A DNA stretch of 7,477 nucleotides. Source: a virus. Lineage: Duplodnaviria > Heunggongvirae > Uroviricota > Caudoviricetes. Positions 1,172 through 4,982 of the stretch are shown here, piece after piece. Under the pieces are notes generated by a model. That model did not search any database. It was not told the DNA's origin and saw only the letters and a list, made by a program, of their open reading frames with translations. The position numbers were made by a program, and so were the translations under genes. The DNA lies in the IMG/VR virus record IMGVR_UViG_2663762992_000008; one strand, 5' to 3'. The first letter of the stretch is position 1, and the number at the start of each line of letters is the position of its first letter.

Positions 1172-1489
1172 ATGAAAGAGCATTATATCTTACAGTTCCC
1201 GTTTACTTCAGCGGCGGGAGACGTAATTAACACTCTGCAATTACGTCGCCTGAAAGTAAAAGATATGCGCAACGCGCGCCGGATCAGCGAAAAGCCAGAA
1301 GAGTGGGATGAACCGCTAATGGCGGCAATGACCGGACTGGTGCCAGAAGATTTAGCTGAAATGGATTTGCTGGATTACCAGGCATTGCAGAAACGATTTC
1401 AATCCATGCTTACCGTGGTTACAGAATCCTCCCCTGCTATGGCAGGCAATGGCGTTACTGGCGAGATGGTTTCGCTTTCCGCCCAGTGA
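1172..1489 (+). CDS. Tail assembly chaperone, short form (P2 gpE-like)
   Basis: 105-aa acidic ORF between the tube and tape-measure genes, the conserved position for this chaperone. AAGGA at 1161-1165 lies 6 nt upstream of the ATG. Confidence 0.65.
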   Translation: MKEHYILQFPFTSAAGDVINTLQLRRLKVKDMRNARRISEKPEEWDEPLMAAMTGLVPEDLAEMDLLDYQALQKRFQSMLTVVTESSPAMAGNGVTGEMVSLSAQ

Positions 1490-1577
1490 GATAGACGCCC
1501 TTACCGTCGATGACTTTAGCAACTGGCTGGATGAAGCCAGCGCTCAAATAAAGATCGAATATGACTCGCAGACCTGA
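1172..1577 (+). CDS. Putative frameshifted long form of the tail assembly chaperone (E+E'-like). The extension lies in the +1 frame relative to the short form; the exact shift site is not defined.
   Basis: Frame 3 is open from 1356 to a TGA at 1575-1577 and encodes a protein-like tail (..LARWFRFPPSEIDALTVDDFSNWLDEASAQIKIEYDSQT). The -1 frame closes at 1492-1494, adding only two codons. A CTT-TCC context at 1475-1480 would permit a prfB-like +1 slip (CUU to UUU). Confidence 0.4.
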
Positions 1578-1589
1578 TGTCTGCGAGTC
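1563..1589 (+). promoter_or_regulatory. Strong stem-loop: 11-bp perfect stem (gactcgcagac / gtctgcgagtc) with a 5-nt loop ctgat that contains the TGA ending the +1-frame chaperone extension
   Basis: Perfect 11-bp inverted repeat read directly from the sequence. It is followed by a moderately T-rich segment and about 90 nt of untranslated leader before the tape-measure start. Confidence 0.4.
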
Positions 1590-1677: not shown

Positions 1678-4029
1678 TTGGCCAACGATATTATTACCCA
1701 GCTTCAGGCGCGTAATGAGACGTTGACGCAGGCAATAGCCCGTTACGGCTCACTCAACGCCAGAACTTTGTTAGCTCTCTCTTCTCAGCAAGCGACAGTA
1801 ATCAAACTAACGCAGCAACTTGCCGATTCTGCTCTCCGCCTGGAGGAAAATAGCCGCAGCCGCGCTAATCTGATGGAGAAAACCCACACATTTGCCGGGC
1901 AATTTAGCAAAGTATTCAATGTTGAAGCCCCCGATTGGAAGTTGCCGTATGAGTTCCAGGACAACATGGTCAATATGGCGACCAAAGGTGGGATGAATGA
2001 TACAACCCGCGAGACGCTCAGCCTTAATCTGCGCGACTGGAGCATGGATTTTAACCAGCATCAGACCACCTTACAGAACGCAGCCCAAACGCTGATCGAA
2101 GGCAATTTGTCGTCGATACAGGATCTCAACCGTTATATGCCGGAGATCGCCAAAGCTGCCACCGCCACGCGCGAAAGTGCTGAAACATGGGCGAATGCCG
2201 CGCTCGCAACCCATGATCGACTGAATATTGCGCCAGAAAATTTCCACGCCGCGCAAAACATGATGTACGGCATTAGCAAAAGCGGTGGGCCTGCCGTTGC
2301 CGAGCAAACGCAGTGGATAGACAAATTTGCAGGTAAAACCGGCGCTCAGGGTCTGGAAGGTATGACTGAACTGACTGCCGCCATGCAGATCGCCATGAAA
2401 AACGGGGCCAGCGCCAGTGCGGCGGCTGAGAATTTTGACCACTTTCTGCAAACCACCTTTTCGAAAAAAACCGATAGCTGGTTCGCCAGCCAGGGCGTCG
2501 ATTTGCAAGGCTCTCTGCTTGAACATCAGCAAAACGGTATGAGTGTTAGCGAAGCCATGACTCATATCGTGCAAATGCAGCTTGAGAAGATGAATCCGGC
2601 GATCCTCGACACCTTCAAACGCACTATGCAGATTGAAGATTTATCTGCTCGCAGCACTGCGCTGCAATCGATGGTGGCGCAATTTAATCTGGGCGAAATG
2701 TTCGGCGATGCGCAAACGGTGGAATTCCTGGCACCTATGCTGGCGAATATGGAGGAATATCGCCAGTTAAAAGCCTCTGCCATGCAAACTACCAGCAAGA
2801 ATCTGATTAACGCTGACTTTTCTGCGCAAATGGCCTCGCCCATTGAACAGACTAAAGCGTTACAACTGGCGTTAAATGATTTATGGCTCAGCATTGGCTT
2901 GCAGCTTATGCCGGCGATTGGCGAGCTGGCACAAAGCCTTGCGCCGGTTATTCGCCAGTTCAGTGCCTGGCTACGCGAACATCCGGCGCTGGTGCAAAAC
3001 ATTGCGAAAATCGTCGGGGCGATTTGGCTGTTTAACGGTGCGCTTAATGTTTTAAAGCTGGGCGCGAACCTCATCGCCTCGCCGTTTATTCGTCTGGTCG
3101 ATATCTTCCTGAAAGTCAGGGCAAGTCTGGCCCTCGGCGGCGCGGCAAGTAAAGTGCTATCGGCGGTTAAGTCATTGGGTGGCGGCGCAAAATGGCTAAC
3201 GCAACTGCTTGGTCGTGGCCTGATCGGAGCATTGAAACTGTTTGGTCGAACCGTTCTCTCGCTAGGCCGGGTGTTATTGATGAATCCCATTGGTCTGGTC
3301 ATCACTGCGATTGCGGGCGCGGCTTATCTGATTTATCGCAACTGGGAACCTATCTCCAGGTTCTTTTCGACCATCTGGCAACGTATCACCACGGCCTTTG
3401 ACGGCGGCATTGCAGGAATTTGTCGGTTGATTCTCGACTGGTCACCGCTGGAGTTGTTCTATAGCGCCTTTTCCGATGTGATGAATTGGTTTGGTGTTGA
3501 GATGCCTGCGAGTTTTAGCGAGTTCGGCAGCAATATACTGGGTAGCCTGGCCGACGGCATAATGAATGCTTTCCCCGCACTGAAAGGCATTATTGATCAG
3601 GTCAAAAACGCCATGCCAGACTGGCTAAAAGCCACAATGGGTATCAGCACAGAAGCATCGGCTGCGGCTGTTACAGGCACGGCTAATACCGCATCAGTCT
3701 CCCCCGCGACCGTTGTTCCAGGCGTTGCCGGTGCGATTTTAACGCTGCCGGTGGGCAAACAACTCGCGCCATCCGGCAAAACGGCTACGCCGTCATCGGC
3801 AAAACCCGCGTCGGCCTCTTTACCTGGTAAATCCGTAACCAAACCGGCGACGCTACCCTCCCGTTCCCCGGGAAAAGTCCAGGTGAATTTTTCGCCACAA
3901 ATTACCGTGCAGGGTAACGGACAAAACACCACTAAAGAGATTCAGAACGTGTTGACGATGAGTAAACGCGAACTGGAAAGAATGATTAACGATGTAATGG
4001 CGCAGCAGCAGCGCCGGGGGTATGCCTGA
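1678..4029 (+). CDS. Tail tape measure protein (P2 gpT-like)
   Basis: 783-aa ORF directly downstream of the chaperone. N-terminal half is helical and Ala/Gln-rich; there is a central run of hydrophobic, Gly/Ala/Leu-rich segments (about aa 400-560) and a C-terminal Ala/Ser/Thr/Pro-rich low-complexity stretch. Apparent TTG start at 1678, since no ATG or GTG occurs in frame after the upstream stop at 1639-1641. Stop overlaps the next start (TGATG at 4027-4031). Confidence 0.8.
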   Translation: MANDIITQLQARNETLTQAIARYGSLNARTLLALSSQQATVIKLTQQLADSALRLEENSRSRANLMEKTHTFAGQFSKVFNVEAPDWKLPYEFQDNMVNMATKGGMNDTTRETLSLNLRDWSMDFNQHQTTLQNAAQTLIEGNLSSIQDLNRYMPEIAKAATATRESAETWANAALATHDRLNIAPENFHAAQNMMYGISKSGGPAVAEQTQWIDKFAGKTGAQGLEGMTELTAAMQIAMKNGASASAAAENFDHFLQTTFSKKTDSWFASQGVDLQGSLLEHQQNGMSVSEAMTHIVQMQLEKMNPAILDTFKRTMQIEDLSARSTALQSMVAQFNLGEMFGDAQTVEFLAPMLANMEEYRQLKASAMQTTSKNLINADFSAQMASPIEQTKALQLALNDLWLSIGLQLMPAIGELAQSLAPVIRQFSAWLREHPALVQNIAKIVGAIWLFNGALNVLKLGANLIASPFIRLVDIFLKVRASLALGGAASKVLSAVKSLGGGAKWLTQLLGRGLIGALKLFGRTVLSLGRVLLMNPIGLVITAIAGAAYLIYRNWEPISRFFSTIWQRITTAFDGGIAGICRLILDWSPLELFYSAFSDVMNWFGVEMPASFSEFGSNILGSLADGIMNAFPALKGIIDQVKNAMPDWLKATMGISTEASAAAVTGTANTASVSPATVVPGVAGAILTLPVGKQLAPSGKTATPSSAKPASASLPGKSVTKPATLPSRSPGKVQVNFSPQITVQGNGQNTTKEIQNVLTMSKRELERMINDVMAQQQRRGYA

Positions 4030-4982
4030 TGTATGCCGTTTTAGGAGAGATTGAATTTAAAGTTGTCACATTCTGGGACGGCTTTAAAAGCACAATGGGC
4101 GTGGATTACGCCACACATGCCCGTATAGAAGGCAAACCCGGCGTGCAGTTTATTGGCGATAAGCTGGATATGCTGGCGCTGGAATTTTCCCTGCACAGCC
4201 AGTTTTGCCAACCCACAACAGAGCTGAATCGACTGCGTGAAGCCATGCTTGCTCACAAAGCAATGGCGCTGGTGTTTGGCAACGGAGATTATCGCGGCTG
4301 GTTTGTAATTACAGAGTTAACCGCCACTCACCAGCACACCGATCCCTGGGGCAATGTCATTGCCCAAAGCGGAACAATGTCGCTCCAGGAGTATACCGGC
4401 GATCCGAAAAACCCACTGCTGCCCCCGGCAATTACCACCCAGGAGCCTAATATCGAGGAAAAGGCGAGCGATTTTCCGAATAAGGTGGAGTCCTGGTTGT
4501 ATCAGATATTGAACGCCATTGAAGAAGGTATGCGCAAAGCCAAAGAGATGCTCGATGAACTGGCGCAAACCATTGAAGATATTAAAAAAACAGTGGCAAA
4601 AGTGAAAGCACTGATTAAAGAGGCCAAAGCGTTAAAAGAAAAGTGTGAAAAGATAATTACGTCGTTGAAAAAGACTATCGACGCCATCGAAACCCTGTTT
4701 AAACAGCCAATGGATCTGCAAATGCTGGCAGGACTCCCAAAAGCGTTGTCGGCTCAGATTAAAGCTTTACTGGGTAACATGCCAGGTATACGGGACTGCG
4801 CCAATGACGCCAGTACGCTGGTTGACCATGCTCAGACACTTTTCGACGACATTGCCAGCAACATCGCCGAAGCGACGTTTGATAAAGCCGCAACGTTGGT
4901 TGATCAGGCACGAACAACGGTACAACAAACCACTCCCGCAGTGAGCCAGCTTGCTGCCGCGACCATTACGAGGAGCTGGTAA
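4029..4982 (+). CDS. gpU-like tail protein (tail tube terminator family) fused to a C-terminal extension of about 180 aa predicted to be alpha-helical/coiled-coil
   Basis: The N-terminal ~125 aa (hydrophobic start, ..GVQFIGDKLDMLALEFSLH..) resemble P2 gpU as I recall it, and the gene is in the gpU position between tape measure and gpX. The ORF continues without a stop to 317 aa through a Lys/Glu/Ala-rich heptad-like sequence (..MRKAKEMLDELAQTIEDIKKTVAKVKALIKEAKALKEKCEKIITSLKK..). TAATG overlap with the next gene. Confidence 0.65.
   Translation: MYAVLGEIEFKVVTFWDGFKSTMGVDYATHARIEGKPGVQFIGDKLDMLALEFSLHSQFCQPTTELNRLREAMLAHKAMALVFGNGDYRGWFVITELTATHQHTDPWGNVIAQSGTMSLQEYTGDPKNPLLPPAITTQEPNIEEKASDFPNKVESWLYQILNAIEEGMRKAKEMLDELAQTIEDIKKTVAKVKALIKEAKALKEKCEKIITSLKKTIDAIETLFKQPMDLQMLAGLPKALSAQIKALLGNMPGIRDCANDASTLVDHAQTLFDDIASNIAEATFDKAATLVDQARTTVQQTTPAVSQLAAATITRSW

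Follow-up and report, generated by a model that had tools for sequence, protein, structure and literature searches.

We propose that a tail assembly chaperone gene in the 7,477-nt stretch of DNA recorded as IMGVR_UViG_2663762992_000008 (Caudoviricetes), referred to here as the window, gives rise to two proteins, the longer of which would be made by a +1 slip of the P-site tRNA-Phe on the sequence UUU_C. We assign this reading a probability of about 0.7. The short chaperone form, a gpE/gp41-like protein of 105 amino acids (aa), is encoded on the + strand at positions 1172 to 1489, and the predicted shift site is CGA_TTT_C at 1394-1400 (Arg75, Phe76 and then C), which was identified from its invariance, from a bracket placed on the position of the shift and from codon bias. 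A preliminary description of this DNA had noted an extension of the chaperone in the +1 frame and had drawn attention to a CTT_TCC sequence near the chaperone stop codon as a possible slip site. The extension was substantiated by our analysis, and the real site is most likely about 80 nt upstream of CTT_TCC, at CGA_TTT_C.

The chaperone coding sequence lies in frame 2, extending from an ATG at 1172 to a TGA at 1487-1489. As had been described, only frame 3, the +1 frame, is open past this stop codon (1356-1577 on the + strand, with a TGA stop at 1575-1577), while the -1 frame (frame 1) closes early, at a stop codon at 1492-1494. A 651-nt stretch spanning this region is 100% identical in six complete E. 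coli chromosomes. To place this arrangement among relatives, we located both the chaperone and the E'-like motif of the extension in 173 loci, for which phage records, genomes, IMG/VR contigs and metagenomes were the sources. The motif was in the +1 frame in 171 of these loci, in the -1 frame in one and in frame with the chaperone in one. The 171 +1 loci, which range from E. coli to Burkholderia, form 26, 11 and 8 clusters at 90%, 80% and 70% identity, respectively. Because six independent genomes are identical and the relatives share the offset, a sequencing indel, which the preliminary description had wished to see checked, is excluded. The single in-frame locus (L062) is one sequence with a 1-nt deletion downstream of LLARWF. 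The single -1 locus, from Pasteurella phage AFS-2018a (L012), has a canonical A_AAG_GGA heptamer (1720-1726) just upstream of the stop codon, and since this case was found the survey was able to detect ordinary -1 arrangements. The long chaperone form is likewise unannotated in the record of the Pasteurella phage.

Selection on the two frames was assessed with the synonymous fraction, defined as the share of pairwise codon differences that are synonymous, in 100 unique enterobacterial sequences that could be aligned without gaps. Over the extension this fraction was 0.45 in the +1 frame, compared with 0.08 in frame 0 and 0.06 in the -1 frame, which indicates purifying selection on the +1 product. 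The extension is 58 codons long in 93 of 109 unique +1-type relatives. The overlap of the second open reading frame (ORF) with the 3' end of the chaperone gene is accompanied by a shared offset, and the only Met codon considered as a separate start, at 1449, is not conserved. From these data the +1 tail was confirmed as a real coding tail, reached by what the sequences indicate to be a +1-type frame change and not by an indel artefact.

The predicted fusion contains 134 aa, consisting of chaperone residues 1-76 followed by 58 residues encoded by 1401-1574, and the junction for a shift on UUU_C would read ...LQKR|FNPCLPWLQNPPLLWQAMALLAR. The part read after the shift (1401-1577, + strand) comprises 58 codons (NPCLPWLQNPPLLWQAMALLARWFRFPPSEIDALTVDDFSNWLDEASAQIKIEYDSQT) plus TGA; besides its translation and the +1 purifying selection, it is recognized by a match to phrog_8286 (E 1e-20). 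Within it, a core related to the E' portion of the P2 GpE family was delimited at 1449-1550 (+ strand) with PF06528 and hhalign. The Pfam model PF06528 (Phage_P2_GpE) matched the +1 tail alone with an E value of 0.003 and 17.6 bits, below the 23-bit cutoff, and matched the fusion from the window at aa 93-126 with a sub-threshold 17.4 bits. A profile built from 11 predicted fusions of the family was collinear with both halves of the experimentally established P2 gpE+E' (hhalign: columns 5-124 against 4-135, probability 92.6%, E 4.7e-7). The earlier suggestion that the extension encodes a plausible protein tail is supported, and this tail probably represents the E'/T-like half of a tail chaperone. 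A sequence search of the PDB gave no hit.

The boundaries of the two overlapping ORFs in the 109 unique relatives limit where the change of frame can take place. The +1 frame opens only 8 nt before the Phe76 TTT codon in six unique relatives from three distant lineages (the Ralstonia type, L167 and Pseudomonas phage Komp), and in four other relatives frame 0 already closes at TTT+27 to TTT+33. These boundaries alone gave a bracket of TTT-8 to TTT+29, and selection in the +1 frame was evident by TTT+13. Upstream of the TTT codon the synonymous fraction was 0.59 in frame 0 and 0.09 in the +1 frame; in the 18-codon linker after TTT it was 0.11 and 0.26, respectively. When individual codons were considered, +1 selection could be seen from TTT+13 onward, with a TTA/TTG Leu codon, followed by an invariant Trp codon at +19. 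Two E. coli loci (L015 and L023) differ at five frame-0 residues across 1427-1453 and at none in the +1 frame. Similarly, Arg in the LLARWFRF motif is encoded by CGC, CGG, AGA or AGG in the +1 frame, and frame 0 at these positions specifies S, P, Q or a stop codon. Because of the ORF boundaries in the 109 unique relatives together with the switch in synonymous substitutions, the predicted shift is confined to 1389-1410. In lineages whose bracket is tight, the stretch of the +1 frame from its opening to the point where selection sets in contained no start codon. Coding on the opposite strand was also considered and rejected: a raised synonymous fraction was seen in one antisense frame only, and this frame shares wobble positions and contains more than one stop codon per sequence.

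TTT_C is the sole slippery element, and the sole sequence allowing perfect +1 re-pairing, inside the 1389-1410 bracket. TTT followed by C, in frame at 1397-1400, was invariant in 172 of 172 +1-frame loci, even though the residue that follows in frame 0 can be Q, L, R or H, and TTTC was the only run of invariant columns (four columns) in an alignment of 13 diverse family members. This conservation goes beyond what the amino acid sequence needs. All 100 unique enterobacterial sequences have TTT at the site, compared with a background of 52%. GC-rich lineages retain TTT at the slip site despite its low share among the Phe codons of their flanking genes (0.04 in BcepMu, 0.08 in Komp, 0.11 in Bise, 0.15 in Ralstonia, 0.19 in L171-174 and 0.28 in L170); with five lineages taken as independent, the joint chance of this retention is about 2e-5. 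The conservation extends upstream of the slip codon in the enterobacterial relatives, where AAA CGA TTT shows near-zero synonymous variation (S <=0.02) and neighboring conserved codons vary freely. Where Arg precedes the slip codon, it is encoded by CGA in 104 of 105 cases, compared with a background share of CGA among Arg codons of 7%, and the codon before CGA is AAA in 92 of 100 sequences. BcepMu and L170 carry TCC_TTT_CGC at the slip site. The frozen rare CGA codon (1394-1396) could be a stimulator in the E site; if the shift instead took place at AAA_CGA, it could be the hungry codon.

According to our model, most ribosomes would read 1172-1489 and produce the 105-aa short form, whereas a minority would slip by +1 with the UUU codon of Phe76 (1397-1399) in the P site. 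The anticodon of tRNA-Phe (GAA) forms a G.U wobble pair on UUU and would gain perfect Watson-Crick pairing on UUC (1398-1400). Translation would then continue in the +1 frame from AAU at 1401 to the UGA at 1575-1577, giving the 134-aa protein. The slip would occur at a low level without a detectable RNA stimulator, as in influenza PA-X. The I.A wobble pair formed on CGA is weak, and the rare conserved CGA in the E site may help the slip by this means. If the two products work like lambda gpG/gpGT and P2 gpE/gpE+E', the N-terminal domain common to both would cover the tape measure protein, and recruitment of the tube subunit would fall to the rare long form. A -2 shift can be discounted, as tRNA-Phe would face GAU two bases back from UUU, and the bracket is also free of the homopolymer on which a Mu-type -2 shift takes place; the frame change is thus better described as +1. 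A bacterial cell-free assay placed UUU in the group of P-site codons most prone to shifting (bioRxiv 10.1101/2025.10.02.679949). Low efficiency would be what the system needs; the long form is made at a frequency of a few per cent in lambda and Mu (PMC5009743, PMC3498833).

Several results weigh against this model. The PF06528 scores were 13-22 bits in five of eight predicted fusions, below the 23-bit cutoff, and NCBIfam models gave no match for the extension or the fusion. The surveyed sequences are phylogenetically related, so that the counts given above overstate independence. In the linker, the +1 signal is modest (0.26 versus 0.11) and conserved residues occur in both frames. The A-site codon is not rare, being CAG in 74 and CAA in 25 of 100 enterobacterial sequences (CAA background 26%), and it is CGC, CGG or CTG in GC-rich lineages. 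The sequence upstream of the slip site (GCAGAAACGA) contains no Shine-Dalgarno (SD)-like element, and no conserved RNA structure was found downstream (consensus -0.37 kcal/mol; fold of the window sequence not significant, z = -0.93). Low efficiency is expected because an SD-like element, a conserved structure and a rare A-site codon are all lacking, and the efficiency may be very low.

Other recoding mechanisms acting at or near the site were rejected as well. Canonical -1 programmed ribosomal frameshifting (PRF) on an X_XXY_YYZ heptamer does not apply, as the extension is not in the -1 frame, which stops at 1492. PRF of the prfB type at CGA_TTT_C would call for a stop codon occupying the A site, which is CAA in the window, and for an upstream SD element. 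Transcriptional slippage is not credible either, as no run of A or T in the bracket exceeds three (T3 only). We found no promoter-like site, and a single terminator-like site, which lies within the chaperone gene on the opposite strand. A perfect 11-bp hairpin at 1562-1588 (+ strand) has the stop codon of the extension in its loop (GACTCGCAGAC ctgat GTCTGCGAGTC) and folds with -22.7 kcal/mol in a 70-nt segment. It is conserved and shows compensatory changes in close relatives from Superficieibacter, Dryocola and Phytobacter (L006-L009 and L043). This hairpin is not required for the shift; it is not followed by a T-tract and was not scored as an intrinsic terminator.

The alternative that fares best, to which we nevertheless give only a small chance, is a +1 shift one codon earlier, on AAA_CGA (1391-1396), in which tRNA-Lys would move from AAA to AAC with the slow CGA codon in the A site to yield ...LQK-DF-NPCL.... 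In bacteria, the classic +1 context is a slippery codon with a hungry codon after it (PMC3498833); CGA is rare, and both AAA (92/100) and CGA (98/100) are nearly free of synonymous variation in the enterobacterial relatives. A shift at this position, after which GAT-TTC would be read in the +1 frame, would also account for the fixed TTT in enterobacteria, which is a further point against a slip on UUU_C. However, AAA_CGA is missing in the GC-rich lineages, in which TTT is preceded by ACC_CGA, GAC_CGA, GAC_TCC, GAG_GTG or GCG_GCA and TTT_C is still held against strong codon bias. Moreover, re-pairing of tRNA-Lys from AAA to AAC leaves a wobble mismatch, whereas re-pairing from UUU to UUC is perfect.

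Another possibility we considered is that the C-run TCC_TCC_CCT (1427-1433) is where this E. coli lineage changes frame, either by a -2/+1 slip of tRNA-Pro or by slipped-strand DNA variation. The junction peptide would be ...TESSLLWQAMALLAR, i.e. ...QSMLTVVTESS-LLWQAM.... CCC_C is known to be prone to shifting, runs of C6-C7 occur at 1427-1433 in some E. coli variants, and the database proteins P0001 and P0002 are single-ORF fusions produced by loss of one C in the C-run (...TESS|LLWQAM...). However, the run varies even within E. coli (GAATCCGCCACTG, GAATCTGCCACTG), and changes in AAT CCN CCN at or before it are only synonymous in the +1 frame, whereas frame 0 changes (SSPA, SATV, SPPA, SPLA). 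Furthermore, in L043 and L044 a TAA closes frame 0 before the C-run is reached. Given the pattern of E. coli variants and the upstream frame-0 stop codons, we rejected the C-run as the programmed site, and its chance of being responsible for the frame change in this lineage appears slim. The natural single-ORF fusions were uninformative as markers of the junction, being 1-nt or larger deletions. Among E. coli copies the length of the C-run, which lies in the frame overlap, ranges from C3 to C7 (the window, TCCTCCCCT, and L022, L025 and L102). P0001 and P0002 are constitutive chaperone-E' fusions resulting from loss of one C, and other copies have larger in-frame deletions; all of these could be sequencing errors, decay or phase-like variation.

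Similarly improbable is the absence of recoding, with a 42-aa peptide (MALLARWF...) translated from an ATG at 1449, perhaps by reinitiation near the chaperone stop codon. This ATG is present in the window and its closest relatives, and the extension ORF has often been called a separate small gene by phage annotators (phrog_8286; BcepMu gp42). In other relatives, however, the Met codon is replaced, the sequence being QAQG in the PhiKM/KP12 type, GEK in Ralstonia and DEV or DEA in BcepMu and Komp, and +1 selection reaches about 12 codons upstream of 1449. The sole SD-like triplet (AGG) is only 2 nt from the ATG, and in P2 and lambda the homologous parts are produced solely within fusion proteins (P2 record; PMC5009743).

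The prfB-like slip of tRNA-Leu on CTT_TCC (1475-1480) that had been put forward in the preliminary description is very improbable, and the comparison of relatives refutes it as a conserved site. These codons specify L102 and S103 in frame 0, and the junction would read ...GEMVSLPPSEIDAL..., i.e. ...GEMVSL-PPSEIDAL. Re-pairing from CUU to UUU is the prfB slip, and the position close to the frame-0 stop codon recalls lambda G/GT. However, CTT_TCC falls in the +1-selected region, with the eight codons upstream of it (LLARWFRF) under strict +1 selection; frame 0 ends before this position in 44 of the 109 unique relatives; and CTT is replaced by GTT or ATT in many of them. The site also lacks an A-site stop codon and an SD element, as had correctly been pointed out. 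Two other candidates near this end of the overlap were rejected. A GGG_G slip just before LLARWF in relatives of the PhiKM/KP12 type has G, C, T or A as its fourth base, changes that are synonymous in the +1 frame and non-synonymous in frame 0. A G5 run (CCG_GGG_GAG) near the frame-0 stop codon of some relatives does not occur in the window, and in 38 unique loci the frame-0 stop codons come before it. Finally, a 1-nt sequencing or assembly error, or a pseudogenized chaperone in a dead prophage, has a negligible chance of explaining the offset: several database copies do have deletions in the chaperone gene (P0003, P0004, P0005, P0026), the cluster lacks head genes and the window has ambiguous bases at 188-198, but the six identical complete genomes, the recurrence of the offset in 171 loci and the strong +1 purifying selection all contradict it.

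Tailed double-stranded DNA phages use -1, -2 or +1 shifts for the tail chaperone gene pair, the -2 shift being that of Mu (PMC5009743, Atkins et al.). Mu is the only natural -2 case, with an efficiency of about 2.2% (PMC3498833, Firth et al.). The preliminary description had called a +1 or -2 shift atypical, which holds in that such shifts are uncommon, but they were already documented for this gene pair. As in the window, the extension of Mu occupies the +1 frame when counted from the chaperone, and it belongs to a Mu/BcepMu-like tail module; the Mu chaperone matches PF10109 weakly (24.7 bits). The end of Mu gp41 reads ...GAA CGG GGG CGA..., and when we checked the sequence the only open downstream frame was +1. 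Xu, Hendrix and Duda reportedly assigned the -2 frameshift of Mu gp41 in 2004 to C_GGG_GGC_GA. Mu is thus a precedent for a chaperone gene pair that does not use -1. The two systems differ in that Mu uses a two-base back-slip on a G5 run eight codons before the stop codon, whereas the bracket of the window has no homopolymer. In addition, the nearest Phe codon in Mu is TTC, and a +1-frame stop codon separates it from the G-run.

P2 gpE/gpE+E' resembles the system of the window in its gene order of tube, chaperone and tape measure, in its PF10109 domain and in its two-part product, which for the window is predicted. The extension has 58 aa in the window and 57 aa in P2, and PPSE[IL] occurs 26 and 28 aa after the shift, respectively. 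The -1 site of P2, T_TTT_TTG (GGT TTT TTG), likewise includes TTT as a Phe codon, at the point where the chaperone domain ends on its C-terminal side. We rejected the idea that this slip codon and Phe76 are the same codon, as P2 Phe84 is placed about three columns downstream by Pfam coordinates and MAFFT. P2 shifts by -1 on a heptamer, whereas the shift in the window would be +1 with no X_XXY_YYZ sequence, and frame 0 continues for 29 codons past the shift in the window as opposed to six in P2. The -1 site of the Pasteurella phage is about 5-6 codons after the Phe76 column. Judged from these alignments, the relatives place the shift at the domain boundary, in differing directions, for the same two-part protein.

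Parallels in mechanism are influenza A PA-X, an established case of +1 slippage at UCC_UUU_CGU (PMC3498833), and the UUU-pyrimidine +1 sites of E. coli. PA-X shares with the family of the window the proposed movement of P-site tRNA-Phe from UUU to UUC, a motif resistant to synonymous change and the lack of an evident RNA stimulator. In BcepMu and L170 (TCC_TTT_CGC) the E- and P-site codons are the same as in PA-X. PA-X differs in belonging to an unrelated host translation system and gene, and the enterobacterial sites have other flanks, with CGA before and CAA or CAG after the slip codon. The role of a slow A-site codon is uncertain in PA-X too (PMC3498833). The prfB gene, which encodes RF2, is comparable in that a +1 P-site slip takes place in E. 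coli on CUU_UGA with an upstream SD element. However, its A-site stop codon, its SD stimulator and its autoregulatory function have no counterpart in the system of the window.

BcepMu gp41 is a homologue of the window chaperone, and gp42 is the homologous +1 ORF. The GenBank record of BcepMu pairs gp42 with gp43 as G/T equivalents produced by slippage, whereas our analysis links the E'-like gp42 ORF to gp41 by a predicted +1 shift on TCC_TTT_CGC. A peptide conserved in relatives in the gap between gp42 and the tape measure gene is not in the gp43 frame. The gap between the extension stop codon and the tape measure gene is 230-280 nt in GC-rich relatives (L011, BcepMu, 1970-2243; L005, L013, L167 and L171) and contains a small conserved ORF (...GPKKAxPKxxTxPNTxGT...GNS...); the corresponding gap in the window is 100 nt long and lacks this ORF.

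The window belongs to a cluster of contractile-tail genes of the BcepMu/P2 type that resides in the E. coli chromosome. The + strand of the window contains, in order, the end of a tail sheath gene, the tube, chaperone and tape measure genes, and gpU-, X-, D-, V- and W-like genes. The FII-like tail tube gene directly upstream of the chaperone (597-1121, + strand) matches PF04985 (E 4e-56) and is annotated in RefSeq as 'phage major tail tube protein'. The chaperone itself matches PF10109 (Phage_TAC_7) over aa 6-80 (E 3e-18, 66 bits against a cutoff of 25 bits) and phrog_166, a tail protein family of PHROGs (E 4e-33); the RefSeq protein is WP_000658215.1, 'phage tail assembly protein'. The gene for the tape measure protein, the presumed client of the chaperone, starts with TTG at 1678 and ends at 4029 (+ strand; PF10145, E 3e-11; RefSeq 'phage tail tape measure protein'). 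The chaperone gene, between tube and tape measure, is therefore in the position expected of a frameshifting tail chaperone pair. The gpU-like tail protein encoded at 4029-4982 has 317 aa, about twice the length of P2 gpU, and its C-terminal half gave many weak Pfam matches of the coiled-coil type. The ambiguous bases (N) at 188-198 mark a low-quality assembly patch inside the tail sheath gene; the chaperone region has none and is identical to complete genomes.

Six complete genomes, among them that of E. coli strain A10, whose chromosome carries the cluster, match the window with 100% identity, and the locus was present at >=90% identity in 195 of 5426 complete E. coli genomes, in every case on the chromosome. 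In A10 the cluster (L001, chromosome positions 4617562-4633202) is flanked by lysC and by a nucleotidyltransferase/slipin pair. It includes a Mor-family activator, a lysis cassette with a holin and a lytic transglycosylase, and tail genes through the tail fibre; head, terminase, integrase and transposase genes are not annotated in it. This tail-only layout is like that of a tailocin derived from a BcepMu-like phage, and the chaperone extension is still under purifying selection. A limited literature search turned up no paper on this E. coli tail-only cluster.

RefSeq annotates the short chaperone form only, and PHROGs files the extension as phrog_8286, an orphan family of unknown function. The authors of the KS10 study found no frameshift site with tools oriented toward -1 shifts. 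We found no paper that assigns a +1 UUU_C site to this chaperone family, although an earlier mention cannot be fully excluded. The frame class is known for this gene pair. Extending the model to the whole clade, we consider it reasonably probable that myophages resembling BcepMu, and derivatives of them that consist of the tail only, ranging from Burkholderia, Ralstonia and Pseudomonas to E. coli, Salmonella and Klebsiella, make the long chaperone by an unstimulated +1 slip on x_UUU_C at the domain boundary, perhaps with stimulation by CGA in enterobacteria; the PF10109 family would then use -1 (P2), -2 (Mu) and +1 shifts.

The frameshift in tail chaperone genes is a textbook example of recoding; almost all characterized cases are -1, and Mu is the sole natural -2 case. 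If our model is correct, -1, -2 and +1 solutions to the same task would be found side by side in one protein family, with a constant junction position and product architecture but a variable direction of recoding. The site would also be convergent with that of influenza PA-X, as illustrated by TCC_TTT_CGC in BcepMu, and the cluster would make unstimulated +1 slippage of the PA-X type accessible to genetics in E. coli, together with the possible help of an E-site CGA codon. Gene finders that seek only -1 heptamers will miss the long form, and engineering of the tail-only cluster or of BcepMu-like phages needs both products.

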